Shown here: piece after piece, positions 15,459-64,000 of the stretch
Layout: each line of letters opens with the position of its first letter
Numbering within the stretch: position 1 is the stretch's first letter
Assembly: GCA_963823665.1 (NCBI GenBank)
Contig: CAWGMQ010000008.1
Location: forward strand, 1,184,001-1,248,000
Reading direction: 5' to 3'
DNA from: an uncultured Planctomycetota bacterium
Lineage (GTDB): Bacteria; Planctomycetota; Planctomycetia; Isosphaerales; Isosphaeraceae
Length of the DNA: 64,000 bases
The notes under the pieces: generated by a model
Seen by the model: the letters and a program-made list of their open reading frames with translations, nothing else
Told to the model about the DNA's origin: nothing
Database searches by the model: none
Program-made: the position numbers and the translations under genes

Positions 15459-16110
15459 CGCTGAACCTCAGAGATCCACCGGGGGGACCTTCCATCGAAC
15501 GCTTCAGGTTCTTGAGCCCGCGTGCCATGATGCCGCGCACCGATTTTCGGCTTAATCCGAACCGCTCGCCGATCGCCTCGAACGAAAGGCTTTCGGCAGC
15601 ATAGAGCCAAACCACGTCGGCCTCGGCTTCAGGAAGCGCGGCCAGCGCGTCGGCAAGGAGAATGATCTGCTCGCGACGACTGGCGGCCTGACTCGGACTG
15701 GTCTGAGATAGTGCCAGCATATCGACGATCCGCCCATTGTCCTCTCCCGACCGCGAACCCCCGGAAATCTCTGATGCCGCCCCGTCAAGCGGTAAGGCCG
15801 TCGACGCGCCGGCGCGCTTCGCCCGGCTGTGATACCGCCCCAAGTCGGCCAGCTTCTGCCCAACCAGGCGTCGTAGCCAGCCCACCAGGGCTGCTTCGTT
15901 CTGACCCGTGAACTGCGGGAACTGCCGCACCACCTCCACCAACACTTCTTGAATCACGTCCGACATCTCAACCCGCTCGCGCAGTCTGGGACCGAGGCCC
16001 GTGCGCACAACCATTCGCAGATAATTTCGATAGAGCGCGCACAACTCGCCCAGGGCTTCGGTCTCACCCGCGCGTGCCTTTGACAGTAAGTCAATCGGGC
16101 CTTCGGGCAT
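15442..16110 (-). CDS. ECF sigma-70 factor (planctomycete kinase-associated type)
   Basis: YRNYL...SDVIQEVL...FTGQNEAALVGWLRRL (sigma2); TSPSQAA; LPEAEADVV...LSFEAIGERFG (sigma4); overlaps the kinase start. Confidence 0.9.
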   Translation of the reverse strand: MPEGPIDLLSKARAGETEALGELCALYRNYLRMVVRTGLGPRLRERVEMSDVIQEVLVEVVRQFPQFTGQNEAALVGWLRRLVGQKLADLGRYHSRAKRAGASTALPLDGAASEISGGSRSGEDNGRIVDMLALSQTSPSQAASRREQIILLADALAALPEAEADVVWLYAAESLSFEAIGERFGLSRKSVRGIMARGLKNLKRSMEGPPGGSLRFSDGQTH

Positions 16111-44200: not shown

Positions 44201-47200
44201 TGCTGTTTCAATCCTTGTTGTCGTGGATCTCGGTCAACTGCCAGTCGCCCACGCGACGTCACCAAGCCAGCGCTCAGGTTTCAATCCTTGTTGTCGTGGA
44301 TCTCGGTCAACTGCGATCGGACCGCGCAAGGGGAAGGTGACATACGTCGGGTTTCAATCCTTGTTGTCGTGGATCTCGGTCAACTGCAAAACGCATCTGG
44401 CTCGTCGAGGACCTGGTGCTGATGTTTCAATCCTTGTTGTCGTGGATCTCGGTCAACTGCTGCTCGCGTAGGCTGTAACAGGGCTCCCATCGGTTGGTTT
44501 CAATCCTTGTTGTCGTGGATCTCGGTCAACTGCGCCCAGTGTAAGAACGTGGGCGATCTCATTGCCAAAGGTTTCAATCCTTGTTGTCGTGGATCTCGGT
44601 CAACTGCATCAAGTGCCCGCTGCCTGACTGCGGTCAGACGAGGTTTCAATCCTTGTTGTCGTGGATCTCGGTCAACTGCCTGACTGGCGGGCTCGCCAGC
44701 AGCGGCGTCACGCCCGTTTCAATCCTTGTTGTCGTGGATCTCGGTCAACTGCCCCGCCCAGCAAGAGCCCGATCGTCGGGCCCAGGTAGTTTCAATCCTT
44801 GTTGTCGTGGATCTCGGTCAACTGCTCGCCTGGGGTTCCTACACCAACACGCAAGCGAAGAAGTTTCAATCCTTGTTGTCGTGGATCTCGGTCAACTGCG
44901 TGAGGCTGGGCCTGCTCTAACTCGTCGCACGTAAGAGTTTCAATCCTTGTTGTCGTGGATCTCGGTCAACTGCAACAGCACGTCGGGTGTCCCGACTGTC
45001 GGTTCAGTCGGTTTCAATCCTTGTTGTCGTGGATCTCGGTCAACTGCCCGTGATCAAGACGCTGATGGACATCATCCACGACGAGTTTCAATCCTTGTTG
45101 TCGTGGATCTCGGTCAACTGCAGGCAAGAAAGCACAGCCTGGCGAGATACGATGGATGTTTCAATCCTTGTTGTCGTGGATCTCGGTCAACTGCTTGAAA
45201 AACGATTACCTGATCACGATCACCTGAGAGAGTTTCAATCCTTGTTGTCGTGGATCTCGGTCAACTGCTTTCGAACGTCACTCGGAAGACCATGTCAGGA
45301 TTAGGTTTCAATCCTTGTTGTCGTGGATCTCGGTCAACTGCGGCTGTCCGGTATGTGGTGACGGAGTCCGTGAACCAGTTTCAATCCTTGTTGTCGTGGA
45401 TCTCGGTCAACTGCGTGAGCGACCTGGGCGACACCGTCTGGCGACTCGTGTTTCAATCCTTGTTGTCGTGGATCTCGGTCAACTGCGCGACTTACCGAAC
45501 CACGAGCTCCAGCGAGTGATCGGGTTTCAATCCTTGTTGTCGTGGATCTCGGTCAACTGCCGTGGCGATGCGGGCGCCGGCCAGGGCTATGGTTAGGTTT
45601 CAATCCTTGTTGTCGTGGATCTCGGTCAACTGCACGCCGGGATGGGCTCACATACCCCATACGGCACACGGGTTTCAATCCTTGTTGTCGTGGATCTCGG
45701 TCAACTGCCGGAGTGTTCGCCACCATTGCTACCGAAGGAATGTTGTTTCAATCCTTGTTGTCGTGGATCTCGGTCAACTGCAATCGGGATGTTCGCCACA
45801 CCAGTCGGATGGATATTGATGTTTCAATCCTTGTTGTCGTGGATCTCGGTCAACTGCACGAGGATCGCAGTGTCATCGGCCATCCGCTGTACAGTTTCAA
45901 TCCTTGTTGTCGTGGATCTCGGTCAACTGCCGCCAAAGTTCAGACAGGCGCGCGGCCGGACGCAGGTTTCAATCCTTGTTGTCGTGGATCTCGGTCAACT
46001 GCCAGCTCCAGCTTGCGGGCTTCGGCCATCCGCACGATGTTTCAATCCTTGTTGTCGTGGATCTCGGTCAACTGCCGGCAGAGCCAATCTGGTTGCGGCT
46101 GCGAAGTCTGGGTTTCAATCCTTGTTGTCGTGGATCTCGGTCAACTGCCACGTCCAAGAACATCGTCCTGAACACCGGCGCGAAGTTTCAATCCTTGTTG
46201 TCGTGGATCTCGGTCAACTGCCGTTTACAACTGGTATCCGGCGGCGGCGGCGGCCAAGTTTCAATCCTTGTTGTCGTGGATCTCGGTCAACTGCGCGCAC
46301 CAGAAAGACGGGATCGAAATCGCGTGGGTGTTTCAATCCTTGTTGTCGTGGATCTCGGTCAACTGCCAAGCCCGATTGGAAACTTTCTTCGGATTCTTTT
46401 TGGTTTCAATCCTTGTTGTCGTGGATCTCGGTCAACTGCATTGCGGCGGTCATCTGCTATCACATTCGCATTTTTGTTTCAATCCTTGTTGTCGTGGATC
46501 TCGGTCAACTGCTCTTTTCGGCCATCCTAGCGGCGATTCCGTGGACGAGTTTCAATCCTTGTTGTCGTGGATCTCGGTCAACTGCGAGTCCAGCCACCTT
46601 GCCGCCCACGCCTCCTTTGGGTTTCAATCCTTGTTGTCGTGGATCTCGGTCAACTGCGACCCGCTGTAACGGGCCATCTAGAGTATGTATCGAGTTTCAA
46701 TCCTTGTTGTCGTGGATCTCGGTCAACTGCCTGGGGATCGGTGACCGGGCTTCGTGGGCAGGAACTGGTTTCAATCCTTGTTGTCGTGGATCTCGGTCAA
46801 CTGCAGCCGTTGGGGAGCAGGGAGAGTTGCTCCAGATGAACGTTTCAATCCTTGTTGTCGTGGATCTCGGTCAACTGCGCGAATAGCACCAGTCGACGCA
46901 AGAGCTGGTGGAGTTTCAATCCTTGTTGTCGTGGATCTCGGTCAACTGCGGAACGAAACTTGATGCCCGTGCGCACGGGCGCCGCGTTTCAATCCTTGTT
47001 GTCGTGGATCTCGGTCAACTGCTCGCTCCGATAACGAACGCGGCCCCCACACAGATCCAGTTTCAATCCTTGTTGTCGTGGATCTCGGTCAACTGCGCCG
47101 TCCGAGGAGCTCAGCGGGGCCGATGAAGACAATGTTTCAATCCTTGTTGTCGTGGATCTCGGTCAACTGCATTCGGATCAATGATCGGTATTCACGGCTC

Positions 47201-47392
47201 GATGAATGTTTCAATCCTTGTTGTCGTGGATCTCGGTCAATTGCGCGCTCTTCGTCCACCGGGCAAAGGCAGAGGATGGAATGTTTCAATCCTTGTTGTC
47301 GTGGATCTCGGTCAACTGCACCTTGACCGATGCTGAACGACTAGCGCTTGTGGAGGTTTCAATCCTTGTTGTCGTGGATCTCGGTCAACTGC
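38275..47392 (-). CRISPR. CRISPR array of about 125 repeats (37 bp) and about 124 spacers (about 34-39 nt)
   Basis: Repeat on + is GTTTCAATCCTTGTTGTCGTGGATCTCGGTCAACTGC; on - it ends ATTGAAAC. Variant repeats at about 38495 and 38568 mark the trailer end. Manual count 125. Confidence 0.99.
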
Positions 47393-47564: not shown

Positions 47565-48200
47565 CTACTTGATGCAAATATTTCGGTAGCAGCAGTCGCG
47601 GCAACTGGACTTCCAGGAGGTTGCACGCGGGAAGCAGCCGGTCTGGATCACTTGCAGGATCTCACGGAGCACGGCCTCGGCCTCGGCGAAGTCGGCGTCG
47701 CTGAATTCGACGGGCACCACCTTGTGCTTGGAGCGAATGTAGCAGAGGAAGCCCCGGTGCACGGCGCACTGAAAGGTTTCGCGGATCAACAGGGCATAGA
47801 GCACCGATTGCATCTTCTGGTTGTGGTAGACCCGGCCTCGATCCAGCGCGAACTTGTAGTCGAAGGGAGCCCTCGACCCGTCGGCCAGTGTGAAGACCTC
47901 GTCCACCGATCCGCGCACGCCCAGCCGGACCGAGGAAAGCGGCACGTCGAACTGGCGCTGGACCACCCCGAGCTTCTTGCGCAGATAATTCGGATTGATC
48001 CGCCGCCGCTCCTCATGCGCCTGTCGGCCCTTCTGAACCAGAAGCCGCCGCTCCTGCCGTTCCGGCACCGCCAGGACGTGCTCGAAGTATGTGAACCGCG
48101 GGCAGAACAAGTGCTCGAGCACATGGGTGACCGTCAGCGGAAGCGGTGGCGGCTCAGGCCAAGCGGCCGCCGACTGGGCCAAAGTCGCGATCTCGTTCAT
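47565..48200 (-). CDS. cas4: CRISPR-associated exonuclease Cas4
   Basis: FCPR; RGSVD..DYK (RecB-like); Q...YA; C..C.Y..IC Fe-S cluster cysteines. Confidence 0.95.
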   Translation of the reverse strand: MNEIATLAQSAAAWPEPPPLPLTVTHVLEHLFCPRFTYFEHVLAVPERQERRLLVQKGRQAHEERRRINPNYLRKKLGVVQRQFDVPLSSVRLGVRGSVDEVFTLADGSRAPFDYKFALDRGRVYHNQKMQSVLYALLIRETFQCAVHRGFLCYIRSKHKVVPVEFSDADFAEAEAVLREILQVIQTGCFPRATSWKSSCRDCCYRNICIK

Positions 48201-48352
48201 GACAGGAATCTCCCCGGTCAACGGCGTCGTCCCGCTCGATCCAGCCGTAACCATGACTGACCGCGCGGCCCAAGGCGAAACCATTCGGCAAGTCGAGGTT
48301 GGTCAAGAGGCGGCCGCGAAACCAAAGGAATGGGGACGTCTAACTGCATCCT

Positions 48353-50852
48353 TCAGAAGACCTCGCAAGACGGTTCTGGATGACCAGGGACAGAAGAGAA
48401 AAGGCCACCATATTTCGCGCCGTACTTCATCGCGCAGAAAGGAATCCCGTCTGAATCCCGCAGGTTGTGACGAGTGTACCAGATGGGCATCTTCAATTCG
48501 TAACGACGGCGGTCACGTGGACGGAGCTTCTTTACCCGATCGGCGAACACCTCAGGAATGACACTACGCTGCGGATAGTCATCGGGCCGGGTTTTCAGGA
48601 GCGCGTCGTCCTCCCAAGGCCGTGGAGCGTCAAGCACGCCGGCGAGACGATTCTGATGGTCTTTGATCGTGCTCTGGATTCGCAGGAAGGCGTCGTCGTT
48701 CTCTAGTGCAAATCCCTGATAAACCTCCTCAACCAGCTCAACAAGCCGGCGTTCAGTCAGGGGTCCCTGACTACGGGAGAGCAAAGTCCACGTGGAACCA
48801 AGGATTCCGGCCGGTCGAGCGTAGACCCGCTCGCTTTTCTCTTCATGTCGATGGACAATTACACGACCACATTTCAAGAGGCGGGCTCGATTCACTCGCC
48901 CTGCCCGCTGGACGAGTGCGTCGAAGGGTGCGCACTCGGTCAGCAGTATGTCGTAATCGATGTCGAGCGACACCTCTACCACCTGCGTGGCTATGAGTAA
49001 GCGGGGACTACATTCGTTGATCTGTCTTTCCTTCTCCTCTCGGTGCTTGAAGATAAACTTGGAGTGATAGCAAATCGGCTTGAATTGGCGCAGGGCCTTG
49101 GCAACGGTCTGACATTGCTGGACAGTGTTGACGACGACTAGGACGCGAATTGGCTTCCCGTGGTCATTGCATTCGTTCCAAAGCTCGCGGAATCGCTGCG
49201 ATGGTCTGGGATCGTCGGTTCGCAAACCTTCAAGAAGCCATTCGCTCAGTGGCGTTTCGCAAACCTTCCAGTCGTTCCTAGCCTGCTCAAGCAGCGTCTT
49301 CTCCTCGATGACCGAGACGCCAGGTCGTTCGTGGGTAGACGCTCCAAGGGCCTCGAGCATGACAGCGCGGAGATTCGATGGCATCGTCGCGCTCATGATG
49401 AAGAAACGAGAGCCCCAATGGCAAAGGCGTCGGATCATCATTACCATCAAGCCCAGGGTGTGAGGCTCGTAGGCATGAACCTCGTCGATGATGATCGCCG
49501 CATCCGCGGCCGCGAACTCTTTCAGGGCCCAACGGCCGGCATGGAGCTGAGGAACGAGCAACTGATCCACAGTGCCGACGGTCACCGGAAAGAAGAAGTG
49601 GGATTCTTGCAGCACCCCGGCACGTACGTCAGCTCGGTCGGCCTCGGATTCCGCCTCAATTCCTGTGTCGCGCACAAGGTCCGCCGTGGAGTGAACGAGA
49701 ACCGACTTCGTGACCATGATCGTCGAAAAACTCCTTCATTCGGTCGTGAATGCTATTGGCCGTAACCATCGTGGGCAAGAGGAAAAGAATCTTTCGAGCG
49801 TGCCCGCGCTGGATTTGACGCAAGGCCCATCCAAGCGCCGCCTCGGTCTTACCGCTCCCAGTGGGAGCGATGCCGAGCACGTGCCCGACGACCGCGTCGC
49901 ACTCACTCTGAAACGGCGTGAATCCTCCGTACTCCGGAAGATTGGGATTGTTGGAGCGCCTTTCCTCGTGGCGGTTGCGTAGGTAATCGGGCACGAGTTC
50001 CGGCCCGACGCGGACGACACCCCGTTCCACGTCGTCGGTTGGGTCCTCGCACCGGGCGCCGCTCGCCATCCAATCGGCGGTCATCAGGAGGCCCTTCAGA
50101 AGGGTGAACAGGTCGTGGAATGCTTCCTTTCGCGCGTAGGTTTTCACCTGGTTTTTGACGAGTTCCAAGCAATTGTATGGGTAATTTCCATTCGGTCCGT
50201 TGCTCAGCTCCCGACGTACGTCCTCTGGGATTATTTTGTAGCGCGGCAAGGTCCAACCCTGCATTGCGAACATCGCCCTGGCTAGGTCTTGCGCCGCGGC
50301 AGCCACGACTTCAGGCTCGGCGATCCAGGCGATCGCGTTCACGAATTGATCCTCAGAAGGGAGGTCGTGCGAGACGAATCGGTGGTGCCCTGCCACGGCC
50401 ATTACTTCCAAGAGGCCCCCACCGGGAATCTTGGTCATCTGGTCCAGCGCTCGCGACGCCTCCTTGACGACCCAGATGCCGGCGATCTCATGGCGATAGT
50501 TAAGCCGAGTCGCCCTTTTGTAGGCGCTGTCATCCTGCGCCCTCATCATGTCTTGAAAGTTCGTCGTCAGCTTTCCCACATCGTGAAGCGCCACGGTCAG
50601 GAGACTCGATTTCAGGAAACGCTGCGGACTGATGTTGCAACGGGCCGCGACAGCCTCAATCAAGGCAGCGTGCTGCCGCACGAGCCCACACCAGGCGCGA
50701 TGAACAGCAACTATGTGCTCACGGTAGGTTTGTCGTCTTTGCCCTTTTTTGGCGTCTTCCCGCTTGGCGAGGGCCTCGTCGAGGAGCCGCCCTCCAGCGG
50801 TTTCGATTCGTAGCGGTGCACGGGGATCGTCCAAGGTAGCTCTCCATTCCAA
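48353..50852 (-). CDS. cas3: Cas3 HD nuclease-helicase, frameshifted near 49700 (start 50852 or TTG at 50834)
   Basis: EHI..LHDVGK..RHE..GHH..ADW (HD); APTGSGKTE, DEVH, MSAT, ATQVVEVSLDID, QRAGRVNR. Confidence 0.95.
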
Positions 50853-51598
50853 GACGAGATTGCCGGGCTGGATCGAAGGGGCTCCGATTGAGGCTCGATC
50901 TGATAACCGACGACGGGCGCCTCGGTTTCATCCAGCACGATTGGATCGGCCACGAATGTTACGATCGAGCGCCCGTTGAGACGACGAGGGCCGTCGGAGG
51001 CGAATTCGAAGCCGGTGGGAATGCGTTCGACCCTGGGTGCACGGATCACGCGGCTAAGGGGAACCCTGGCAATGTCCTCGTATAACCCATAACGTGGGCT
51101 GATCTCCCCGAACACCAGAACATGTGCCAAGCGCCGCTCAGCCGTGAGCGAAGCGTCCTTCACCCGCACGGCGACCGCCTTCATGAGGGCGTCGCTTGGC
51201 CCGGCAGTGAGAGGAAACGCCGGACGGCGAAAAGCACCAGCCAGTTCCTCAGCTCCGCGCGCATCAGGTGATTCGAAGACAAGGACAAGACGAGTTTCGG
51301 TCCAGTACTCCCGGAGCAAGACGTCGGTCTTGCTCTCTTTGCCTTCTTCGACCAGCTCGAGTTTCTGGAACTTCCACAGGTCGCGCATCCGGCCCTCGTG
51401 CGAGCCGCCAACCCCCAAGCGCAGGTTACGATCGACGACATAGCGGTACGCCCCAGGCAAGTCCACGCCCAATGATGCGCCCAATAGACCGACGAGGGAC
51501 GTATAGGGTGGGAGTGGGAACGTCCGGTGATAGGTCAGTGCCTCAGGGGGCCGCCAACTGGACACGGGGGCGATTGCTTCGACGACCACGATCGGCAT
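50711..51598 (-). CDS. cas5: Type I-B Cas5
   Basis: SSWRPP...HRTFPLPPYTSLVGLLGA; LLREY; PAFPLTAG.SD. Confidence 0.92.
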   Translation of the reverse strand: MPIVVVEAIAPVSSWRPPEALTYHRTFPLPPYTSLVGLLGASLGVDLPGAYRYVVDRNLRLGVGGSHEGRMRDLWKFQKLELVEEGKESKTDVLLREYWTETRLVLVFESPDARGAEELAGAFRRPAFPLTAGPSDALMKAVAVRVKDASLTAERRLAHVLVFGEISPRYGLYEDIARVPLSRVIRAPRVERIPTGFEFASDGPRRLNGRSIVTFVADPIVLDETEAPVVGYQIEPQSEPLRSSPAISSWNGELPWTIPVHRYESKPLEGGSSTRPSPSGKTPKKGKDDKPTVST

Positions 51599-52530
51599 TA
51601 CAAAGCCCCCTTCACTCCGAAGTGGAGGTTAACCCACCCCCGGATGGTTTCGAACGCCTCGCCGATCGTGAGAGTGCCCTCGGGAAGATTAGTGAACAAA
51701 CCGGCGCGGGCGCCGAAGCAGTGGTTCACCAAGATATCCCTGGAATCACTCACCGACTGCGCCAGGGCATCCACGTCGATGCACTCGTCATCACGCACCC
51801 CCGAGCGTCGGACCGACTCGAGGAAAAGTGGCACCTTGGCCGTCGTGACCGCCGCGGCGATGAACTTGGGACTGATGTCCGCCAGAAACCGCGACTGCCG
51901 GCCGCTGGACCAGAGATGCTGAAGCGCCCCTAGGAGAGAATTGACGCGGCGAGCCTTCTCCGCTGATTTTAGGTCCCAATCTTTCTTCGGCTCCTTGGCC
52001 GAGATCCCCTCACCGGGTCGATTCTTGCCGACGGCATCGAGCTCGATCAAGACGGTCCCGCGGTAGAGGCCGCCGTGGATCTCCGTCTCGAAGATGTTCG
52101 GCGTGCCCCCGGCCTCGACACCCATGTAGTTCGTGCCGAAATCAAGATCTCCCTCGTAGGGGTCGATCGCCAATAGAGGAGCAACCCGCACTGGGCTCGT
52201 CCGTTTATGTGTCCCGCCCTTTGAGGCATCCATGAACCCGAACAGATCGTCGTCGATGAATTTCTCCGGCAAGCACGCAGTGATCGCCGCCCCCTTTTTC
52301 TCTTTGGCGGCCGCGCCCTCGGAAAGTTCATGATTGAGAGTTCCGAGCTGATCCCTGAGAGCGCGACGAACAGCCTGGCTCGAGACATAAGGAAAAGTTT
52401 TCGAGCCACGGGTTAGTTTCTTGATGTTACTGACGTTGTCTGCCTCCTTGTCGCTCCCGTTGAGGGAGCCAAGCGACACCGGTGTGAGAAACGTTATGGT
52501 TAGGGATTTGGCGTCCTGAAGAGTTGGCAT
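51598..52530 (-). CDS. cas7: Type I-B Cas7 (Cst2/DevR family)
   Basis: PYVSSQAVRRALR, DDDLFGFM, KRTSPVRV, NIFETEIHGGLY; AAGGAG RBS. Confidence 0.93.
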   Translation of the reverse strand: MPTLQDAKSLTITFLTPVSLGSLNGSDKEADNVSNIKKLTRGSKTFPYVSSQAVRRALRDQLGTLNHELSEGAAAKEKKGAAITACLPEKFIDDDLFGFMDASKGGTHKRTSPVRVAPLLAIDPYEGDLDFGTNYMGVEAGGTPNIFETEIHGGLYRGTVLIELDAVGKNRPGEGISAKEPKKDWDLKSAEKARRVNSLLGALQHLWSSGRQSRFLADISPKFIAAAVTTAKVPLFLESVRRSGVRDDECIDVDALAQSVSDSRDILVNHCFGARAGLFTNLPEGTLTIGEAFETIRGWVNLHFGVKGAL

Positions 52531-52543
52531 CGGATCGTTCTCC

Positions 52544-52891
52544 TTAAGAAGTTGTGGTGGCGACGTTCTTGGTTTCACGAGTTCCGTAAAGGAAGCGGCT
52601 CAAGGCTGACACGACGCAGAACCCCCGAAACTCCTCGAATGTTTCCCGGTTGAAGACGGCCCCATCGAGTACGTCGCGAGGTATGTCGATGTCATAGCGG
52701 AATTGCAGCCTCGCCAGCTCATTCATGAAGTCGGCGGTCGTCCGCGTCTTTCGCAAGCGGAACAAAGCGCCACGCGCTCTCCCTCGCGATTCATTCTCAT
52801 CCTTGTCGTTGACCTTATCTGAGACGGCTTTGCCGATCTCACCCCCGAGCCAAGTCGCAGTCTTGACCATTCTCTGGTACATCTCATCCAT
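52544..52891 (-). CDS. cas11: Putative internally translated Cas11 small subunit (about 115 aa)
   Basis: In-frame ATG (MDEMYQRM...) inside cas8, preceded by AAGGGG-ACGCCG. Confidence 0.6.
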   Translation of the reverse strand: MDEMYQRMVKTATWLGGEIGKAVSDKVNDKDENESRGRARGALFRLRKTRTTADFMNELARLQFRYDIDIPRDVLDGAVFNRETFEEFRGFCVVSALSRFLYGTRETKNVATTTS

Positions 52892-54493
52892 CGGCGTCCC
52901 CTTCTGGCGTTCCACCTCGTAGAGCATGACGAAATCGAGGAGCGGCCGAACCGACCTCGCCTTGCCCGCTTCGGTGTGAGGGTTGATGTGAAATGCGTGC
53001 TGCTCCAGCAACGCGAGCACGCTCTCGCGCCGCAGGATAGCTGAGCACACCCGGTCTCGGACGAGCGTTCGGCCCTCGTCCTTGGCTTCAAAATCGACGA
53101 GCGTTGCGAAGAGTTTTTTGGGAGAACAAACCATCTTATTGCGTCGCGGAGCAGTTTCTTCGACGCTCTGCATCCGTTCGAAGAGGCGCGCCAGGTACAC
53201 CACGTCCCTGACCGACCAGAAGTCGCGGGCAAGCCACACATTCCCTTTCTTCGCCGCAGAGATGACGGCAAAACTGACGTGTCCTTGCTGCTCTGTAGCC
53301 CGGAACACCTCTTCCGCTGAAATTGGGGCTTCCGGTTCCTCCGCCTCCGACGCTTCGGGGACTTCAGCATCTTCGCTGTCAACCGGCTCCAGTTCTGATC
53401 TCGCTTCTTGCGCGGCCACCCGAGCGCGCTCCCGCAATACCTTTTCCTCTCGGCTGAGCTCGACCAAGGCGCGATGCAAGAATGCCAGAGCGACCTCGGA
53501 TCGTCCGCGGAAAAGAAAGGCGAGCTTTCGACCGCCAAGCAAAAGGTCGAAATTGCGATAGAGATTTGGATCGAGCTGAATCATGCTGCCCAGCGTCTCC
53601 ACAAGAGCGTTAGTGCGCCGAAGGTCCGATGACTCGGGGAAAAACACGTGCAGGTCGTCGTCTTGTTGATGAAAAAAGGCCACGGCTGGAACAAATTTGC
53701 CGACGAAGTCGGCCCTCCACCCGAGTCGAGGCCAATTCGAATTCCCGCTGATGAACGACCGACTTCCTCCCATGAGCGGAAAGGCGGTCTCCTTAGCCTC
53801 GACGACGGAACTCTCGGGCATCCCTGTAAGAAAGCAATTCCAGTCGTGTCGATTGGCGCCGACGCGAATCTCTACCTTGGGACGAACCTGATTGGGGCCG
53901 TCGATGAGCAGGCCAGCCGGGGGTCCCGGCTTTAGGCCGTTTTTCGCCAGGAAATCGTCGAGTTGCGCCTGGAGGTGCTTGAGTTCCGGGGGCAAGCGGC
54001 CTGGCGCTCGCACCTCTTTACCGTGATCGTCAGTGATCGATCCCCATGTCACCTGCTCGCGGGAGGGGCGTGCCGCCTTGTCAAAAAGGAGCGAGGCCAC
54101 CCCGGTCGCTCTAACCTTGGGGAATGTGACAAAGTCCTTCCTTGAGCGATCGTAGTAGAAGTTGTAGCTTGACGTCTCCCTGCGTTGTTTCTGGCTCGAC
54201 TTGTTGAAGTAGAGATCGACAAGCCGGTCGTAGGCCCACTCCAGGCAAGCCTGAACGCGGCTGGCGGCTCCGCTGACGACCAGGCGGTCGGCCCGGAGGT
54301 CGTCACGTTTCACATCACGAAACGAAGCGTCCACGCCACCCTTCAGTCCGCAGGCCCCAGAAGAATCCGTGTAGTTGGGCAATTCGTTCAAGATGCGATA
54401 GAGTCCAACTATTCCCGCATCGATCCAAGAATTTCCTGTGCGGAGAAACTCCACGGCCAAGATCTCGTCAGCCTTGGCTTTCGCTTTCGCCAT
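52544..54493 (-). CDS. cas8: Type I-B large subunit Cas8 (Cas8b/Cst1-like)
   Basis: TGNSWIDAGIVGL N-terminal motif; helical C-terminal domain; position between cas6 and cas7. Confidence 0.85.
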   Translation of the reverse strand: MAKAKAKADEILAVEFLRTGNSWIDAGIVGLYRILNELPNYTDSSGACGLKGGVDASFRDVKRDDLRADRLVVSGAASRVQACLEWAYDRLVDLYFNKSSQKQRRETSSYNFYYDRSRKDFVTFPKVRATGVASLLFDKAARPSREQVTWGSITDDHGKEVRAPGRLPPELKHLQAQLDDFLAKNGLKPGPPAGLLIDGPNQVRPKVEIRVGANRHDWNCFLTGMPESSVVEAKETAFPLMGGSRSFISGNSNWPRLGWRADFVGKFVPAVAFFHQQDDDLHVFFPESSDLRRTNALVETLGSMIQLDPNLYRNFDLLLGGRKLAFLFRGRSEVALAFLHRALVELSREEKVLRERARVAAQEARSELEPVDSEDAEVPEASEAEEPEAPISAEEVFRATEQQGHVSFAVISAAKKGNVWLARDFWSVRDVVYLARLFERMQSVEETAPRRNKMVCSPKKLFATLVDFEAKDEGRTLVRDRVCSAILRRESVLALLEQHAFHINPHTEAGKARSVRPLLDFVMLYEVERQKGTPMDEMYQRMVKTATWLGGEIGKAVSDKVNDKDENESRGRARGALFRLRKTRTTADFMNELARLQFRYDIDIPRDVLDGAVFNRETFEEFRGFCVVSALSRFLYGTRETKNVATTTS

Positions 54494-54494
54494 G

Positions 54495-55199
54495 TCATGC
54501 CTCCAGTCTCACGACCGTGCCGAAGCCTCTTGCGCTGCTCTTACCGATTCCCCAGTGGTCCGGAATCAGAAAGTTGACCCTGAAGGTTCCGCTAAATCCC
54601 AACAGACTCAAGCCCGGCTTCAGTTCCTCGAAGCCCGTGAACTCCAGGCAGGTTTCTGCCACCAAGCGAGTCGTGACGTTCAGGTCGACGCTCTTGCTCA
54701 AGGAGAGGAGATTGCCGATGAGGATTCTCTTCAGCAAGGCCGACCTCTCCGAGGCATCAACTCGTGACCAAACCTCGTGGTTCTCTTGGTTCAGCGCCAA
54801 ATAGGGCGTCAAGAATTCATATCGGATCATCTCAGCACATGGTCCGACCAGCACCCGGCTTGCGGTCACGGATTGATTCGTTACAACAAGCTCGTCCGGT
54901 CCCAGCCGGAGGTGGTCCGTGGCGGGTAGACCGCGCACAAGCACTGCCCCCGCTGCGAGCCCCATCACGGCGGCGTCTCCTCGGCTCGTGTCGTATCGAA
55001 TAAGCGGATGCTGGTAGAAAAAGCCGTTTCCGCTGTGATTGTGGAAATCTTTTCGAGATGTTAGGCCAATTATCGCTCCCCTAAGCCAGCGCGATTGTTG
55101 AAAGCCGAGTGGCTTACTCAGGGTAAGCCGGACGTCGCCGTGTTCAATGATCGCCGCAGTGTCGAAGGAAGCCGGGTGGAGTGCGACGCCAATGCTCAT
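54495..55199 (-). CDS. cas6: CRISPR endoribonuclease Cas6 (Cas6b-like)
   Basis: LRG..FHNH...YQHPLIRY; TPYLALNQEN; LIGNLLS; GIGKSSARGFG glycine loop. Confidence 0.92.
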   Translation of the reverse strand: MSIGVALHPASFDTAAIIEHGDVRLTLSKPLGFQQSRWLRGAIIGLTSRKDFHNHSGNGFFYQHPLIRYDTSRGDAAVMGLAAGAVLVRGLPATDHLRLGPDELVVTNQSVTASRVLVGPCAEMIRYEFLTPYLALNQENHEVWSRVDASERSALLKRILIGNLLSLSKSVDLNVTTRLVAETCLEFTGFEELKPGLSLLGFSGTFRVNFLIPDHWGIGKSSARGFGTVVRLEA

Positions 55200-55248
55200 T
55201 TACGCGCTCCGTTCATTTGCACGAGGGAAGCCGTCATCGTGGTAAAAG

Positions 55249-55319
55249 AATCCGTCGAGGAATGTGGCTCGAAAACACCAACATTTCAATCCTTGTTGTC
55301 TTGGACATCCGCATCGCCC
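55249..55319 (-). ncRNA. Mini-CRISPR / crRNA-like regulatory RNA: degenerate repeat, about 21-nt spacer, degenerate repeat core
   Basis: 55283-55305 ATTTCAATCCTTGTTGTCTTGGA matches the array repeat at 21/23; 55249-55261 AATCCGTCGAGGA is the repeat stem with a 5-nt loop deletion; the spacer matches 55832-55846. Confidence 0.8.
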
Positions 55320-55335
55320 GACGGATCCTCAGTTC

Positions 55336-55821
55336 TCAATATTCCGCGAATATCTTGCGCGCTCGCCGAATCTCGGAGTAGTATCGCCGCTCACTGATAT
55401 TGATCCTTTTCCGAAACTGCTCCCGGGTCAAACCTTCCCGCTCCGCGATGAGCAATTGGCGAAACAGCGGGATGCGATCGCACAGCTCTTTTGCATCCAA
55501 CTTCGAGATCATTGTCTCGCAATCCCGACTCGCGCTCTCATCTACGGCACTGATCGGGAGGGACTCATCGAGCTGAATCAATGGCGACCTCATGGCGCGG
55601 GCTCTCGCCCGTGCCCGTCTCCACAGCAAGCCAGGAATGTCCCCACCTTGAATGGTTGCACCACTCATTTTGAGAAATTGCTGAGTGGAGGAATGTCGCC
55701 GGATCTCACAGTAAAGATCGTGAGCGACGTCATCGGCGAACTCGGCGTAACGTGTCCTCCTGATGCGACTCGCGATCAGTTCGGTCAGGCGGACAACCGG
55801 GTCAGAGGTGCTCTCAGACAT
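55336..55821 (-). CDS. ECF sigma-70-like protein (about 161 aa) embedded in the cas operon
   Basis: ADDVAHDLY..I and GLLWRRAR.RAR (sigma2-like); LCDRIP.FRQLL...EGLTREQF..INISERRYYSEIRRARKIF (sigma4 HTH-like); GGAG RBS. Confidence 0.7.
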   Translation of the reverse strand: MSESTSDPVVRLTELIASRIRRTRYAEFADDVAHDLYCEIRRHSSTQQFLKMSGATIQGGDIPGLLWRRARARARAMRSPLIQLDESLPISAVDESASRDCETMISKLDAKELCDRIPLFRQLLIAEREGLTREQFRKRINISERRYYSEIRRARKIFAEY

Positions 55822-55831
55822 TTCACGGTCA

Positions 55832-55849
55832 CTCCAAAACCCCAACCAA
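55832..55849 (-). promoter_or_regulatory. Putative Cascade target site (TTG PAM plus 15-nt partial protospacer) over the RBS of the sigma-like gene
   Basis: Minus strand TTG-GTTGGGGTTTTGGAG versus spacer GTTGGTGTTTTCGAG. Confidence 0.7.
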
Positions 55850-55989
55850 CTTGCGCTCTACCTTCGTTATGACGCCAGTCGGGGCTCCGTCCTTCGTTTT
55901 TTTTGGATTTTCGGCGCTCTGGCGAGCACTGCCACGTACGCATGCATGGTGACGCGTCACCACGCGATCGTCCTTCAATGAGTGCGGCG

Positions 55990-56280
55990 TCAGATCACTC
56001 TGGTCAGCACCTCGTCCGCCACCATCTCCCTATCAAACCCCTGCCCAACAATGCGGACCTTTGCGAAGTCGTCTCGGCACATGGGGAAGACATAGACCGC
56101 GTCCGTTTCGAGATTGAGAAGCTCCATGCTGAACTGAATGATTTCTTCAACGCGGCTGCCTGCGACCTCGCCCAGGTAGACGCTCTTTTGGACACGCTGG
56201 AGTCCATAATCGAGGCATCGGTCACCTATTCTTTTGCGCGTTCGATCCTTTGAAATGTCGTAGACGACCCAAGTCAGCAT
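55990..56280 (-). CDS. cas2: CRISPR-associated Cas2
   Basis: WVVYDISKDRTR...YGLQRVQKSVY. Confidence 0.96.
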   Translation of the reverse strand: MLTWVVYDISKDRTRKRIGDRCLDYGLQRVQKSVYLGEVAGSRVEEIIQFSMELLNLETDAVYVFPMCRDDFAKVRIVGQGFDREMVADEVLTRVI

Positions 56281-57398
56281 GATTCGGCCTCCCCGGGCGG
56301 CTGTTCTGAGACGACGTCCTCTTCGTCATTGGGCAGCTCGTCGGCGGGCGGCGCGTCAGTGAACTCGTCCCAGAGTTGGCGGGTCGCGACGACACGAGGT
56401 AGGTCGTTCTTGCCCAGCAGACGATTCGCCAGCGCGTGTGCCTCGTGGGCAATTGTGTCGCGACGCTTGATCTTGCGGAACTTACCTGGCTTCGATTGCA
56501 CCGGGTACTTTACCGGCCGGTCGAGCCGCTGGTTGTAGTAAGGTATGAACTCGGCGCGGCCGGCTTTACTCAATGCAACCCCGCCAGGCACGTGCTCGAA
56601 AAACTCGGCGCGAACTCGGCGGCCCGTGAACAAAAGCAGCGTCGCCCGCTCGGCCAGGATACGGAACGGCTCGATCAAATCAAAAACAAGCGAAGGCTTG
56701 TTGTAATTGTCAGTGTGAAGATACCCCAGAAATGGGTCAAGGCCAGCACATATGCAAGCGCGATCGACCATTGAATAGAGGACGCCGTACGAGTAGTTGA
56801 GCATCGCGTTGAAGCCATCGTGAGCGGGCTGGCGGCTGCGTCCGTCGAAGCGGTAAGCCTCGGGGACGAGCTGGCCCAGGCAGGCGAAATAGGCGCGGCC
56901 CGCGCTCCCTTCCAGGCCGAGCAGCCGCCCACGTTGTTGCTCAAGCGTGCCATCGATTTTATCGACCTGCGCCAGGCTCGAGCGAATCGACTCGATCGCC
57001 GTCGCGAAGATCGTGCGCTGGCCAGACCTGCGCTGCGACAGCTCGTCAAGAAACTCAGCCTGGTTGCGGATTTTGGCGGCGACCCATTCGCGAGCAAAGG
57101 CCAGTCCTTCAGGACCCTCCGCCGTCTCGAGCTGCCGCCGCCGTATGGCCGCCGTCGAACCCATTCGCGGCGGCCAGACCCGCGCGTAAGGGTCGCCGAA
57201 CTTGTCCAGGAAGATGACGTCGATATTGTGCGCAATGGCCAGCACGATCACATCGGAGGAGAGGTGCACGGCCGTGGTCACCAGAATGCTCTGGACCTTA
57301 TGCGCCGAGACCGTCATCTTGTTCGACCCGGCCCGGACCACGAACCGGTCGCCCTTGCGCTTGAGACTCGCCCCAAAGGTGTTGATCACCAATTGCAC
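56274..57398 (-). CDS. cas1: CRISPR-associated integrase Cas1
   Basis: LGLEGSAGRAYF, FNAMLNYSYG, GLDPFLGYLH, LVFDLIEPFR. Confidence 0.97.
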   Translation of the reverse strand: MQLVINTFGASLKRKGDRFVVRAGSNKMTVSAHKVQSILVTTAVHLSSDVIVLAIAHNIDVIFLDKFGDPYARVWPPRMGSTAAIRRRQLETAEGPEGLAFAREWVAAKIRNQAEFLDELSQRRSGQRTIFATAIESIRSSLAQVDKIDGTLEQQRGRLLGLEGSAGRAYFACLGQLVPEAYRFDGRSRQPAHDGFNAMLNYSYGVLYSMVDRACICAGLDPFLGYLHTDNYNKPSLVFDLIEPFRILAERATLLLFTGRRVRAEFFEHVPGGVALSKAGRAEFIPYYNQRLDRPVKYPVQSKPGKFRKIKRRDTIAHEAHALANRLLGKNDLPRVVATRQLWDEFTDAPPADELPNDEEDVVSEQPPGEAESC

Positions 57399-57759: not shown

Positions 57760-58099
57760 GCACATCTCGCCCGGCTTCGCGATCGCCTGTCGCAGGTCGG
57801 GCTCAAATGGCGTCCCTCGAAACTGGCGCGCCACCCGCTCGGTCCGGAAGAGTGGCAGCAGCTCACCCTGGATCAACTGCCGGAAGGTCAAGTGAAACGT
57901 AGGCTCGGTGTAGTAATATCCCCCTCGGGCCCTGTCGAATGCGATCGGGGCCTTGCACTGGCCGCGCAAGATCTCGAGATCGCGCCGGATCGTGCGAGGA
58001 TCGACCTCGAGATCAAGGGCGAACGTCTTGTCGGTCGGCCATTTCGTCGCCCCGCAGCGCCCGCTCGATCGCCTGCACCCGCCTCAAAGTTGGCCGCAC
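57760..58099 (-). pseudogene. Remnant of an HTH-WYL (YafY-like) regulator; only the N-terminal HTH remains
   Basis: R.LRRVQAIERALR..KWP....A.DLEVDPRTIRRDLE.LR....API.FDR...GYYY...GTPFE; frameshift near 58050; no WYL domain follows. Confidence 0.75.
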
Positions 58100-58928: not shown

Positions 58929-60815
58929 TCAATTGGAGTCGGAATTGGCATGGTCCGCACCCAGGTGCCGGCGGACCACCTCCGCCTCTCGCCCAAGCTC
59001 GCGGGCATGGTTCGTCTCGCCAAGGGCGCGCGCCGTTTCGCTCGAGTTGCTGAGGACGTCCGCCAGCTCTTTCTGCGACCGAGCGTCGCCGGCCTCGAGT
59101 TGGATGCATCGCCGCAGATGCTTGACGGCCCTCTCATACGCCCACTCGGCCTCCGGCAACCGGTCTGTATTCACAAAAAGGTCACCGAGCCGGTGGTACG
59201 CTCCGGCGAGCGATTGCAGGCTGTCATGCCGGTCGGGTTGTGCGCGAACGGTTGCATCGCCCGCCTGCACGGCCCGTCGAAGCTCTGCCTCAGCCGAACG
59301 ATTGACGGCGAGACGAAGCACCCGGCGATTCTCTCCATCGAGAGCCGCCACCGGTGCATTCCCGGAAAGGGGCCCAATTCTGCCGTAGCGAATTGCCAGT
59401 AGAGCTGCTGACGCACCCACCGCCGAGGCCGTGACTGCGAGAAAAGCCATGAGGAACACCAACCGATGGCGGCGACAAAAGCGAGTTACATGCGCCCACG
59501 CCCCCGGCGCACGGGCGGAAATCGGGCTGCCACTCTGGAATCGACGGAGGTCGTCCGCCATGTCTCGGGCCGTGGCGTAGCGTTTGCGAGGGTCTCTCGC
59601 CATCGCCGTGAGACAAACGGTTTCGAGGTCGCGCGGGACCGTGGGATTCAACCGCCTGGGAGGCACTGGCTCGGCGGTCCTGAGGAGCTGCATCGTCTCG
59701 AAGACATCGGGGCCAGGGAACGGGGCCTCTCCGGTAAGAAGCGCGTAGAGCGTTGCACCAAGGCTATAAACATCGGTGGCAGGACCGACCGCGTCGAGTC
59801 GCCCTTCTGCCTGCTCCGGGCTCATGTAGCTCGGGGTACCAACGATCTGGCCGGCATGGGAAAGCGTTGCCTCGGCACTATCAACCCAGGAACGAGCCAG
59901 GCCGAAATCGATCAGGTGCGGCCATAGTTCCTGGTCGATCAAGATGTTCGATGGTTTGACGTCGCGATGGACGATGCCCAAGCTGTGCGCGTAATGAATG
60001 GCGTCGGCAACACGCGCGATGATCCCAGCCAGATCATTGGGGGCAAGCCGACCGTGCGGTCGTGCGTACTCGGAGAAACTCTTGCCCTCAACGAACTCGC
60101 TGACGATGTAAGGCATGCCATTGACCTGGCCGATGTTGTAGATCTGTGCGATCGATGGATGCTTGAGACTGGCCGAGATCCGGGCCTCACGGAAGAGCCG
60201 GTTCATGCGGTCATCATGTACACTGCCGAACTCGCGAATGATCTTGATGGCAACAATCCGGTCGAGCGCGACATCGCGCACCTTGAATACGACTCCCATG
60301 CCGCCGGTCCCGATCCGTTGGATGATCTGATAATCGCCGAAAGTGGCCGGCACGTCAGACCAGCTTCCGGCCGTACTCACTCCGAGATCAAGCGGGCGCG
60401 TGGAACCGGCTGACGGGTACGAGCCAACCGTGTCTGCTGGATCGGCGATACTGTCGGCCATCCAGGCCTGGGAGGCCAATAGGGCGTTCGGGGCATGGGA
60501 CCTCGTGGATTGGGAATCCACGCGGAGACCAATCCCAGTAACGGACGCCTCCGAGACTGAAACGCTATCGGGGACGGGCCTGTCCACGGAGTTTTGCTCG
60601 ACGTCTTCGAGCGTTTCCTCGTTCTTCCAGCCCGTCGGCTCCGGTTCCTCGACCGCGCGCCCGACGACATGGCCAATCGCACGCTCGGCGGCCTGGCACT
60701 GAGGGCATGACGCGATGTGCAGGCGCTCGCGGGCTCGCCAGGAGTCGCCTCCGGCGACCTCCCAGAACCGGCTGGGCGCAGGGCACGGTGGTGTGTCACC
60801 CGTTTCGGAAGTCAT
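58929..60815 (-). CDS. Ser/Thr kinase with an N-terminal zinc-finger anti-sigma-like motif, a TM helix and a TPR-like tail
   Basis: HIASCPQC (HxxxCxxC); IGTGGMG, HRDVKPSN, DFGLA, GTPSYMSPE. Confidence 0.9.
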   Translation of the reverse strand: MTSETGDTPPCPAPSRFWEVAGGDSWRARERLHIASCPQCQAAERAIGHVVGRAVEEPEPTGWKNEETLEDVEQNSVDRPVPDSVSVSEASVTGIGLRVDSQSTRSHAPNALLASQAWMADSIADPADTVGSYPSAGSTRPLDLGVSTAGSWSDVPATFGDYQIIQRIGTGGMGVVFKVRDVALDRIVAIKIIREFGSVHDDRMNRLFREARISASLKHPSIAQIYNIGQVNGMPYIVSEFVEGKSFSEYARPHGRLAPNDLAGIIARVADAIHYAHSLGIVHRDVKPSNILIDQELWPHLIDFGLARSWVDSAEATLSHAGQIVGTPSYMSPEQAEGRLDAVGPATDVYSLGATLYALLTGEAPFPGPDVFETMQLLRTAEPVPPRRLNPTVPRDLETVCLTAMARDPRKRYATARDMADDLRRFQSGSPISARAPGAWAHVTRFCRRHRLVFLMAFLAVTASAVGASAALLAIRYGRIGPLSGNAPVAALDGENRRVLRLAVNRSAEAELRRAVQAGDATVRAQPDRHDSLQSLAGAYHRLGDLFVNTDRLPEAEWAYERAVKHLRRCIQLEAGDARSQKELADVLSNSSETARALGETNHARELGREAEVVRRHLGADHANSDSN

Positions 60816-61419
60816 GGCCGTTGTGCGATTCCCCGTCACGCCCGCGAACTTTCAAGATCAGGCGCTTGAGCTCCTTGCGGGCACGATTGAGACGACTGTT
60901 GAACGCAGCAAGGGAGATTTCCAGTGCTTGCGCGATATCGTACTGGGTTCCTTCCTTCCGGAGGTAGTATCGCTCGAGGACGTCTCGCTCCTCATCCGAC
61001 AGTAAACTCAGCGCGAGATCAAGCTTGCGACTCCTCTCCGCCTCGATCATCGCGCCCAACGGATCGCGGGCCTTATGATCGACCGGCACCGCCGAATGCG
61101 ATCCCCGCGAGCTCTCCCTCTCCGCTCGCGCGCTCAAGTCATCGAGGCTGATCGAGTTACTCTCCTTCGCCCGCCAGCAATCAAGAATGAGCCGACGTGC
61201 AGTCGTGAACACCCACGCACGGGCGTGAGGATGCCTGGGATCGAATTTCTCGTCGGTCCAGGCTTGCAAGAACGTCGCCTGCACAATGTCCTGGGTTAGA
61301 TGGTCGGACCCGACCCGGCTCCGGACAAAACCGCGGAGCTCGTTTTCGTGAGTGCGCACGAACGCCACAAATGCCTGCTGCCTCTCCGGTTGGGGAAAAG
61401 CCGCGCCGTTGAGCCCCAT
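60796..61419 (-). CDS. ECF sigma-70 factor
   Basis: LRGFV...TQDIVQATFL..W..RAWVFTTARR; LSDEERDVL...IAQALEIS...SRLNRAR. Confidence 0.9.
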   Translation of the reverse strand: MGLNGAAFPQPERQQAFVAFVRTHENELRGFVRSRVGSDHLTQDIVQATFLQAWTDEKFDPRHPHARAWVFTTARRLILDCWRAKESNSISLDDLSARAERESSRGSHSAVPVDHKARDPLGAMIEAERSRKLDLALSLLSDEERDVLERYYLRKEGTQYDIAQALEISLAAFNSRLNRARKELKRLILKVRGRDGESHNGHDFRNG

Positions 61420-63270: not shown

Positions 63271-63618
63271 ATGGCAAAAGCGCCCGCTCAGAAGCCCGTG
63301 TTTTGGCTTAAGACTGAAGTCAAGACGCCTCCGTACTCGAAAGCGGCCAGGGTGGAAGCGGGGATGCTGCTTCGTCGTCTCCAGAGGGGCGAGTCACTCG
63401 GGATGCCGCACTCGCGTCCCATGTCGACTATCGGCACGCGTTGCCACGAACTTCGGGTGCGCGACGAGAACCGGGGTTGGCTGCTCATTTACCGGATCGA
63501 CCCTGACGCAATCGTTGTCGCGGTGGGATTCTTGAAGACAACCGAGCAGACGCCTGATTCGGTTATAGACAAGGCGAAAAAGCGCCTGCGGGAGTACGAC
63601 GACGTTGAATCAAAATAA
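63271..63618 (+). CDS. Type II TA toxin, RelE/ParE (Gp49/HigB-like) family
   Basis: LQRGESLGMPHSRPM..IG..CHELRVRD...LIYRID...FLKTTEQTP. Confidence 0.9.
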   Translation: MAKAPAQKPVFWLKTEVKTPPYSKAARVEAGMLLRRLQRGESLGMPHSRPMSTIGTRCHELRVRDENRGWLLIYRIDPDAIVVAVGFLKTTEQTPDSVIDKAKKRLREYDDVESK

Positions 63619-63632
63619 TAGGAAATATAATT

Positions 63633-64000
63633 ATGAATGCGCGGAAGAAAAAGGCGCTCGCTGCGGCCGGATGGGTCTCAGGCGACGCCGAAGACTACCT
63701 CGAGCTCAGCGCGGAGGAACGTTGTCTGGTTGAATTGCGCCTCGCGGTCAGCCAGGCTATGCACTATCGACGCAAACAGGGCAACCTCACCCAGCAGGAT
63801 GTGGCCAAGAAATTAGGGACGAGTCAGTCGCGCGTCGCGAGGATGGAAGCTGCATCCTCGGACGTGTCACTCGACTCGCTGTTTACGGGGCTGTTTGCTC
63901 TTGGCGGAAGCATGAAGGATCTCGCGGGAGGGCCCCCGAGCGGGAATGTCTTACCGCCCAGCACGCCCAGCACGCGCGGCGTGAAATATAGGATCAAAGG
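63633..64000 (+). CDS. XRE-family HTH antitoxin (runs off the window end)
   Basis: ATG at 63633: KKKAL.AAGW...LELS.EE..LVELR...LTQQDVAKKLGTSQSRVARME..SDVSLD. Confidence 0.9.
   Translation, partial: MNARKKKALAAAGWVSGDAEDYLELSAEERCLVELRLAVSQAMHYRRKQGNLTQQDVAKKLGTSQSRVARMEAASSDVSLDSLFTGLFALGGSMKDLAGGPPSGNVLPPSTPSTRGVKYRIK

Follow-up and report, generated by a model that had tools for sequence, protein, structure and literature searches.

A candidate CRISPR-repressed module with a sigma-like cargo gene in type I-B loci of one planctomycete family

What is a compact, sigma-like gene doing between cas2 and cas6 of a type I-B CRISPR locus, with no anti-sigma factor at its side, and what holds it in check? 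The gene lies in a stretch of 64,000 nucleotides (hereafter, the window) from an uncultured bacterium of the family Isosphaeraceae (Planctomycetota). The original prediction had placed a 161-aa ORF between cas2 and cas6, and both the coordinates and a Pfam scan confirm it. The type I-B gene order is cas1-cas2-ORF-cas6-cas8-cas7-cas5-cas3-cas4, followed by the array:

55990–57398, minus strand: cas1 and cas2, upstream of the cassette
55990–56280, minus strand: cas2 (Pfam), upstream of the sigma-like ORF
55336–55821, minus strand: sigma-like ORF (protein P0001), 161 aa, ATG at 55821; divergent, ECF-type sigma-like
54495–55199, minus strand: cas6 (Cas6b; Pfam), the first gene past the cassette
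50711–54493, minus strand: cas8, cas7 (Cst2/DevR) and cas5, the type I-B Cascade; cas8 assigned from its position, without a family match
48353–50852, minus strand: cas3, as two ORFs with a one-base frameshift near 49700
47565–48284, minus strand: cas4
38275–47392, minus strand: CRISPR array of 125 repeats of 37 nt and 124 spacers

The neighbours of the gene are cas2 on one side and a repeat with a guide, then cas6, on the other. No anti-sigma gene, kinase gene or extension adjoins it, although ECF genes usually, if not always, come with one of these. In this respect the gene differs, as had been claimed for it, from the three other ECF genes of the window:

60796–61419: ECF gene with a kinase neighbour (Pfam scan)
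15442–16110: ECF gene with a kinase-like ORF as neighbour (read from the translation)
24017–25459: ECF gene with a long C-terminal extension (read from the translation)

A 169-aa form of P0001 could start at a TTG at 55845; the ATG at 55821 is favoured, as the equivalent methionine is the start in three homologues of the same length. The split in cas3 is likely an assembly indel, because further genes in the window likewise appear split when translated. In the related locus G002 cas3 is unbroken, and short DNA contigs cover parts of the guide and the ORF without differences and leave the cas3 frameshift unbridged. Cas3 would be dispensable for repression by Cascade.

Several other elements surround the locus. 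A shortened remnant of a WYL regulator lies upstream of cas1 (57760–58050), and longer WYL genes are found ahead of the cassette in related loci G475, G476, G021 and G461 (a contig-end fragment in G002). A Gp49/RelE-like gene followed by an HTH gene at 63271–63998 forms an ordinary type II toxin-antitoxin-like pair, and we take a 471-aa ORF near the distal end of the array (35748–37163) to resemble an IS transposase. Array spacer 15 (~46295–46329, 35 nt) is shared with another array of the genome, whose repeat differs (L006, G000:C10:179815-179858), at a locus that carries WYL, Cas3 and a Cas4-Cas1 fusion and is presumably type I-G by its gene order. The shared spacer suggests common adaptation, or the same target and PAM in both systems.

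Is the product a sigma factor by fold? P0001 matches no sigma model in Pfam or NCBIfam, and two cas-linked homologues match the ECF superfamily model TIGR02937 over or near their full length with E-values of 2e-6 and 7e-6, which are below the cut-off. An AlphaFold2 model of P0001 has two helical domains joined by a low-confidence linker (mean pLDDT 72.7 with 5 sequences and 80.1 with 19):

P0001, residues ~8–78: sigma2-like domain with an inserted helix
P0001, residues ~117–160: sigma4 helix-turn-helix (HTH)

A fold search with this model returned mostly ECF sigmas as top matches, none of them at E <= 0.001, and the best VIA match was the sigma4 domain of SigK (Z 6.2, rmsd 2.3, 60 residues), which is middling alone. 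Searched against the PDB, the family profile found SigL as its best match (E = 0.005, positions 20–154), across both domains. The compact two-domain ECF layout of sigma2 plus sigma4 is found in P0001 on the evidence of the models, the weak fold matches and the profile match to SigL. We conclude that P0001 has a divergent sigma-like fold, a conclusion that is supported, if weakly by sequence alone. The proposed sigma2- and sigma4-like nature is borne out to this extent, and the predicted fold is sigma-like. Matches to PHROGs are at the HTH level only and involve 3 of the 19 family members; the nearest clusters in the ESM Atlas are mostly unnamed viral proteins, some with sigma domains, which is a lead only.

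Conservation is uneven along the protein. Among the 11 of 19 aligned rows that were kept after near-duplicate, truncated and frameshifted rows had been dropped, pairwise identity peaks in the sigma2.2 helix (36.9 per cent), followed by the sigma4 HTH (30–32 per cent), and sigma2.3/2.4, the region for -10 recognition and melting, has diverged and carries a helix insertion (24.5 per cent). Over the first 80 codons, dN/dS of the sigma-like gene is 0.21–0.31 among G475, G476 and G021, compared to 0.12 for cas6 and 0.11 for cas8 (G475 versus G476). By this comparison the gene is selected as a protein and evolves faster than cas6 and cas8.

These values bear on the most dismissive explanation, that of a decaying ECF gene or a chance ORF with an incidental guide match. 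In its favour are the lack of a family match for the window protein and the frameshifts that several copies of the gene show in their assemblies, as does cas3 in the window. The purifying selection just described, reading frames that are intact in G000, G476, G002, G025, G456 and L059, and a covariation of guide and target that shuffled guides did not equal in 1000 attempts (see below) already largely refute this explanation, which we find scarcely credible.

What, then, might control the gene? The original prediction described it without two key neighbours, a repeat with a guide (55246–55330) and a target site (55830–55849), which flank the ORF on its two sides:

55866–55871, minus strand: weak, putative -10-like hexamer, 16 nt upstream of the PAM; placed by eye from aligned upstream regions
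55847–55849, minus strand: PAM TTG, directly 5' of the target
55830–55846, minus strand: guide target within the 5' region of the gene itself; begins 25 nt ahead of the ATG and covers a GGAG ribosome-site-like motif
55283–55319, minus strand: solitary degenerate CRISPR repeat with 12 mismatches to the array repeat; TCC-N10-GGA hairpin and 8-nt 5' handle kept
55258–55282, minus strand: guide, the spacer-like part of a predicted crRNA-like RNA
55244–55330, minus strand: long-range stem around repeat and guide, then a U-rich run; arms at ~55330–55319 and 55257–55246

The solitary repeat begins 17 bases past the stop codon of the sigma-like ORF, and it is the only copy outside the array in a scan of the window that allowed up to 14 mismatches. 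A layout of two repeats around the guide is absent: the window has one repeat, and a second, partial repeat is seen only in G002. All 11 loci of the cassette (see below) carry a degenerate repeat with an 8-nt handle. The stem that encloses repeat and guide folds at -34.6 kcal/mol (z -3.71; 0 of 200 shuffles), and together with the U-rich run it may be a 3' end, a terminator or an attenuator of read-through into cas6. Six loci (the window, L059, L029, L033, L034 and L036) share such a long hairpin, with the Cas6 site in its loop and the sequence before the repeat paired with that after the guide, whereas G475, G476 and G021 have a local hairpin. In a consensus fold of the six cassettes, 3 of 21 pairs show double changes, and there is little formal covariation because the stems of the window and L059 are out of register with the other four. 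The cassette RNA has no match in Rfam.

Within its first 15 positions, the guide of the window differs from its own target (55846–55832, on the same strand) only at positions 6 and 12. Since the guide has the sense of the mRNA, action as an antisense RNA is ruled out, and the arrangement fits DNA targeting by Cascade. In the 16.5-Mb genome, the target beside a TTN PAM is unique at up to one mismatch, a count to be read beside that of a reversed control pattern, which also occurs once.

To compare loci, we scored guides against targets without gaps, beside TTN, at positions 1–17 minus 6 and 12 (15 positions). Guide and own target agree at 13–14 of the 15 positions in 8 of the 11 loci, and in each of these eight none of 1000 shuffled guides did as well beside TTN. 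Each of the eight guides scores highest on the target of its own locus, one of them tied with the target of another locus. Position 12 matches in none of the eight loci and position 6 in two; positions 1–5, 7–11 and 13–16 match in seven or eight. Mismatches at positions 6 and 12 are the pattern expected from Cascade, because every sixth crRNA position is flipped out, as stated in the part of PMC5904413 covered here. The same part reports that, for the type I-E system of Escherichia coli, PAM-proximal pairing over 18 bp (positions 1–18) gives full binding and no interference.

The fit is poorer in three loci: G021 and G025 align only with a one-base indel, and G473 reaches 10 of 15. The assemblies of all three have broken cas genes. 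L059 has an intact sigma-like gene and two seed mismatches, at positions 4 and 5, and its cassette is possibly a decaying or weakly repressed copy. At L059:5480-7100, cas1 is truncated and cas2 is missing.

The PAM agrees with the Cascade type. It is TTG in all seven loci of the window's Cascade group (Cas7 of the Cst2/DevR type) and TTA in the four loci of a second group, typed as Csh2-like from G025. Near matches of array spacers are thin but consistent with a TTG PAM: spacer 123 has near matches in three related genomes (L189, L190 and L194), all in one conserved sequence and all preceded by TTG, and spacer 42 has one near match preceded by TTC. These two spacers have 4–5 mismatches to homologous sites that are not true protospacers. 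Among the 7993 of 9118 array bases that were searched against phage records no spacer match was found, and one array spacer had no match in viral contigs.

Across the loci, the target starts 17–46 nt before the ATG, and in related loci a TA-rich hexamer lies, by eye, ~14–19 nt upstream of the PAM. A consensus scan of the window found no sigma70 consensus promoter, and none between the guide and cas6 that could serve as a second promoter. Judged by eye, Cascade would sit just downstream of the likely start site and meet the polymerase with its PAM side first. For dCas9 and dCas12a, which are effectors other than Cascade, binding with the PAM side first blocks polymerase fully, according to the part of PMC9758054 covered here.

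These features suggest the following course of events. A single transcript from the upstream promoter would span ORF, repeat and guide and probably extend into cas6-cas8-cas7-cas5-cas3. Cas6 would cut the solitary repeat and yield a short guide with a normal 8-nt handle; the guide-loaded Cascade would bind the PAM-flanked site between the predicted -10 element and the ATG, a step for which the covariation argues strongly. With ~15 paired bases, enough for binding and too few for cutting by Cas3, the gene, and perhaps the cas operon with it, would be transcribed less. Were Cascade deleted, blocked by an anti-CRISPR or titrated, the gene would be de-repressed. Taken together, transcription, processing, repression and de-repression of this kind are, in our assessment from sequence, very probable, and Cascade-guided repression of the sigma-like gene is strongly inferred. 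The idea that RNA-guided repression replaces the missing anti-sigma is thus well supported by comparison, as the PAM-flanked self-target covaries with the guide across loci.

How widespread is the cassette? The unit of gene, repeat and guide lies directly upstream of cas6 in 11 type I-B loci with two Cascade subtypes, always in the same direction as cas6; in related loci, WYL or cas2 lies upstream of the sigma-like gene and cas6 downstream. In a search of the order for cas6, 15 of 121 genomes were positive, and 10 of the 15 (window included) have the cassette at cas6. The eleventh locus, L059, came from a metagenome motif scan that was blind to cas genes; there, the homologue P0008 stands directly before cas6, with the same repeat and guide. 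A class-wide search for cas6 (12 of 401 genomes positive) added three further loci. Neither a sigma-like gene nor a solitary repeat was found upstream of cas6 in eight loci (five from the order, three class-wide). In G477 the gene is broken in the assembly and gives a weak profile match. In G473, where the gene is also broken in the assembly, there is no sigma ORF or profile match, so this locus is counted on repeat, guide and spacing alone. Upstream of another cas6 match, at a distance of ~70 nt, L102 has a two-repeat mini-array and no sigma-like gene; it is likely an ordinary CreR element.

Homologues of the protein are rare: a word-based search found 4, a representative library 11, and one came later. 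Run against the order's 121 genomes, a profile of the family found one more gene, in G025; it lies between cas2 and cas6 and is followed by a repeat and a self-matching guide. The neighbourhood survey that had been proposed came out in favour of a link to cas loci, in that both family members first found by homology and with readable context (G025 and L059) are at cas6; 12 family proteins are without readable context. A further profile search of the order is partly circular for its strong matches, as six of them built the profile; of its ~37 weaker matches (E >= 1e-8), the 22 examined were rejected as ordinary ECFs, with no cas gene or repeat within 1.5 kb. So was L016, the sole other match of a phylum-wide profile search (401 genomes, 9 candidates scored in each), which is an ordinary ECF. 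When cas6 loci were drawn from all prokaryotes, the best 80 of 576 included three with the gene, which repeat sequences counted above (all from Planctomycetota, one from Isosphaeraceae), and these 80 gave no wider range. Neither protein searches nor close alignment found related loci in viral, metagenome or genome contigs, and a wide alignment yielded no pattern that could be used; the motif scan found no viral locus and one metagenome locus, and a single-protein search matched 1 of 61 genomes, the window's own.

In a tree of 47 proteins, a branch with support of 98/96 parts 26 ordinary ECFs and P0015 from the 8 cas-linked and 12 context-less proteins. A single origin is likely, several long branches in the tree notwithstanding. 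The cassette is a real, conserved module within one planctomycete family.

The constant position before cas6 raises the alternative that the guide serves the cas6-cas3 operon as an autoregulator of the CreR type, the sigma-like gene being a co-regulated passenger with a minor or modulating role. The shared direction, the scan that found no second promoter between guide and cas6, and CreA and CreR targets at cas promoters (that of cas6 in type I-B), as described in the covered parts of 10.1101/2023.03.10.532045 and 10.1101/2023.03.03.530964, all speak for it. Yet repeat and gene come and go together (all eight cas6 loci without the gene also lack the solitary repeat), the gene is under purifying selection, and the U-tailed stem past the guide may stop read-through into cas6. 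We regard the gene as a mere passenger as improbable; autoregulation of the cas operon probably coexists with repression of a cargo gene that matters in its own right.

What would the protein do once released? In a predicted complex with the N-terminal region of the host beta', P0001 scored 0.82, compared to 0.00 for the best of three controls; among solved complexes 116 of 157 reach that mark, and among mismatched pairs 2 of 215 do. Runs share at least 61 per cent of contacts, and the pLDDT of the partners is at least 62. The predicted interface consists mainly of P0001 residues 27–41, the sigma2.2 helix, on the clamp coiled coil of beta'. The complex with beta', which had been put forward as a check, thus stands clear of its controls, with the qualification that sigma–beta' complexes are already among solved structures, so the score of 0.82 may be carried over from them and shows likeness only. 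On these models, P0001 probably binds RNA polymerase.

Two outcomes could follow from such binding. In the first, the conserved sigma2.2 helix is predicted to dock on the beta' clamp helices, compete with the housekeeping sigma and arrest growth; the cell would be addicted to Cascade, and phages that carry anti-CRISPRs would be aborted. The toxin that sequesters RNA polymerase, an idea of the original prediction, fits the predicted interface with beta'. We favour growth arrest by sigma competition for its likeness to CreTA and CrePA, and because conservation is higher in the polymerase-binding helix than in the -10 region. Two observations count against it: a strongly toxic gene should not tolerate the two seed mismatches that L059 combines with an intact gene, and the sigma4 HTH is conserved, as a working sigma would need. 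Overall, a toxic outcome through hijacking of RNA polymerase, argued by analogy, stands at about even chances.

In the second, P0001 would be a working alternative sigma with the RNA guide as its "anti-sigma", and loss of Cascade would switch on promoters of cas genes, backup defence or dormancy. This fits the retention of both sigma2 and sigma4, with the HTH second in conservation, the matches of two members to the ECF superfamily model (over or near full length, if below cut-off) and the purifying selection. Links between sigma factors and CRISPR exist in other systems (CalpS, the Csx30-bound sigma and DdvS, as far as the covered sources go), and the gene is preceded by a conserved bipartite element that could serve as a self-promoter of the ECF type. 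The -35-like part of this element, CCGCT, is exact, by eye, in 6 of the 11 loci; the window is without the exact motif. However, the motif is not enriched in five genomes, where it falls below a reversed control and no regulon was found, and it is absent before cas6, cas1, WYL and the array leaders examined. The CCGCT-like element also stays constant in loci whose sigma4 recognition helices differ, which argues against self-recognition, and sigma2.3/2.4 is poorly conserved and carries the helix insertion. A working sigma is therefore a possibility that we hold to be rather unlikely, and the same doubt attaches to its consequence, that a phage anti-CRISPR would reprogram RNA polymerase toward backup defence or dormancy, possibly boosting the cas operon from the same promoter.

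A third possibility, raised by the original prediction, is that P0001 binds Cascade and recruits RNA polymerase to sites set by the guide, in the manner of dCas12f-sigmaE. The atypical -10 recognition region would suit such a role, as would the precedent of a divergent sigma without an anti-sigma tied to an RNA-guided complex (PMC13472631, in the part covered). But the geometry and the single genomic target disfavour it. Within the genome, the guide has a PAM-flanked target solely in the 5' region of this gene, downstream of the predicted -10 element, and a start 46 bp past the motif, as given for dCas12f in the covered text, would fall inside the ORF, the ATG being at +25. The gene is also found with two different Cascade subtypes and is absent from eight related cas6 loci. 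We consider Cascade-guided activation very improbable.

The reading that we prefer remains that of a CRISPR-repressed module akin to CreTA and CrePA, with a sigma-fold, RNA polymerase-binding protein as its cargo, a proposal that we would put, in its entirety, at an even balance of being right or wrong. The CRISPR-repressed cargos known so far comprise RNA toxins, cas genes, defence enzymes and a division inhibitor. One that plugs into RNA polymerase, if true, would be a new output, with anti-CRISPR sensing coupled directly to the machinery of transcription; it would be a toxin that mimics a sigma, or else a sigma factor controlled by a guide RNA in place of a protein anti-sigma. With a length of ~0.65 kb, the cassette offers natural covarying variants under two Cascade subtypes. 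It points to the defence biology of Planctomycetota, a phylum for which the literature searched on CRISPR-repressed cargos gave no such coverage.

That literature contains no guide-repressed sigma gene as far as it was searched, mostly outside subscription papers, and large supplementary tables could list such loci. Specifically, the word "sigma" is absent from the main texts of 10.1101/2023.03.10.532045 and 10.1101/2024.12.27.630466, a sigma cargo is absent from two supplementary PDFs of PMC10120712, and a sigma is never the cargo in the covered parts of the CreTA, CreR, CrePA and CRISIS literature, including 10.1101/2024.10.29.618823 and the review PMC12737573.

Among systems with a sigma factor, CalpS-CalpT, the RpoE-like sigma bound by Csx30, and DdvS-DdvA likewise wire an ECF-type sigma into a CRISPR locus. 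In the Calp and Csx30 systems the sigma is released by proteolysis. As far as the covered sources describe them, these three are type III systems with a protein anti-sigma, whereas the locus described here is type I-B, has no type III anti-sigma, protease or sensor as a neighbour, and would be controlled by a Cascade guide. The dCas12f-sigmaE system shares with it a divergent ECF sigma that has no anti-sigma and is tied to an RNA-guided DNA binder (PMC13472631, in the part covered). Its guide activates distant promoters, with the start 46 bp past the motif, whereas the guide here serves Cascade and has a single target that overlaps the leader of the sigma-like gene itself, placed so as to repress. 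The neighbouring ORFs that were scanned belong to the type I-B cas set, with no Cas12f partner among them.

Closer parallels are found among CRISPR-repressed modules, again judged on the covered parts of the sources. In CreR mini-arrays and CRISIS (10.1101/2023.03.10.532045; 10.1101/2024.12.27.630466), the promoter before cas genes or cargo defence genes is repressed by a crRNA-like RNA, which would sense anti-CRISPRs; the cargos there are cas genes or defence effectors, and here the cargo is a partner like a subunit of RNA polymerase. The haloarchaeal CreTA (10.1101/2023.03.03.530964; 10.1101/2023.03.10.532045) shares the type I-B setting, the adjacency to cas6, a degenerate repeat that keeps its handle and a short seed match. 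It differs in its toxin, CreT being an RNA that sequesters a rare tRNA, whereas the cassette has a protein-coding gene under purifying selection. CrePA of the Acinetobacter type I-F system (10.1101/2024.01.05.574328) likewise places the gene of a small protein between cas genes, and the crRNA-like guide next to it partly matches a PAM-flanked site in the gene's own 5' region, with position 12 mismatched. CreP, however, is a KilAC-domain division inhibitor, and its module has two repeats, whereas the cassette is type I-B, with a sigma2/sigma4-fold cargo and one repeat.

The features that the cassette has in common with CreTA and CrePA are the degenerate repeat with its handle and the PAM-flanked guide match, ungapped at 13–14 of 15 positions in 8 of 11 loci. 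By its guide and target, and not by a two-repeat layout, it would work like a CrePA module, and it stands as a candidate member of CrePA, as its protein does of a functional ECF group. By this analogy, what appears to be new is the sigma-fold cargo, and the repression logic is already known from CreTA, CreR, CrePA and CRISIS.
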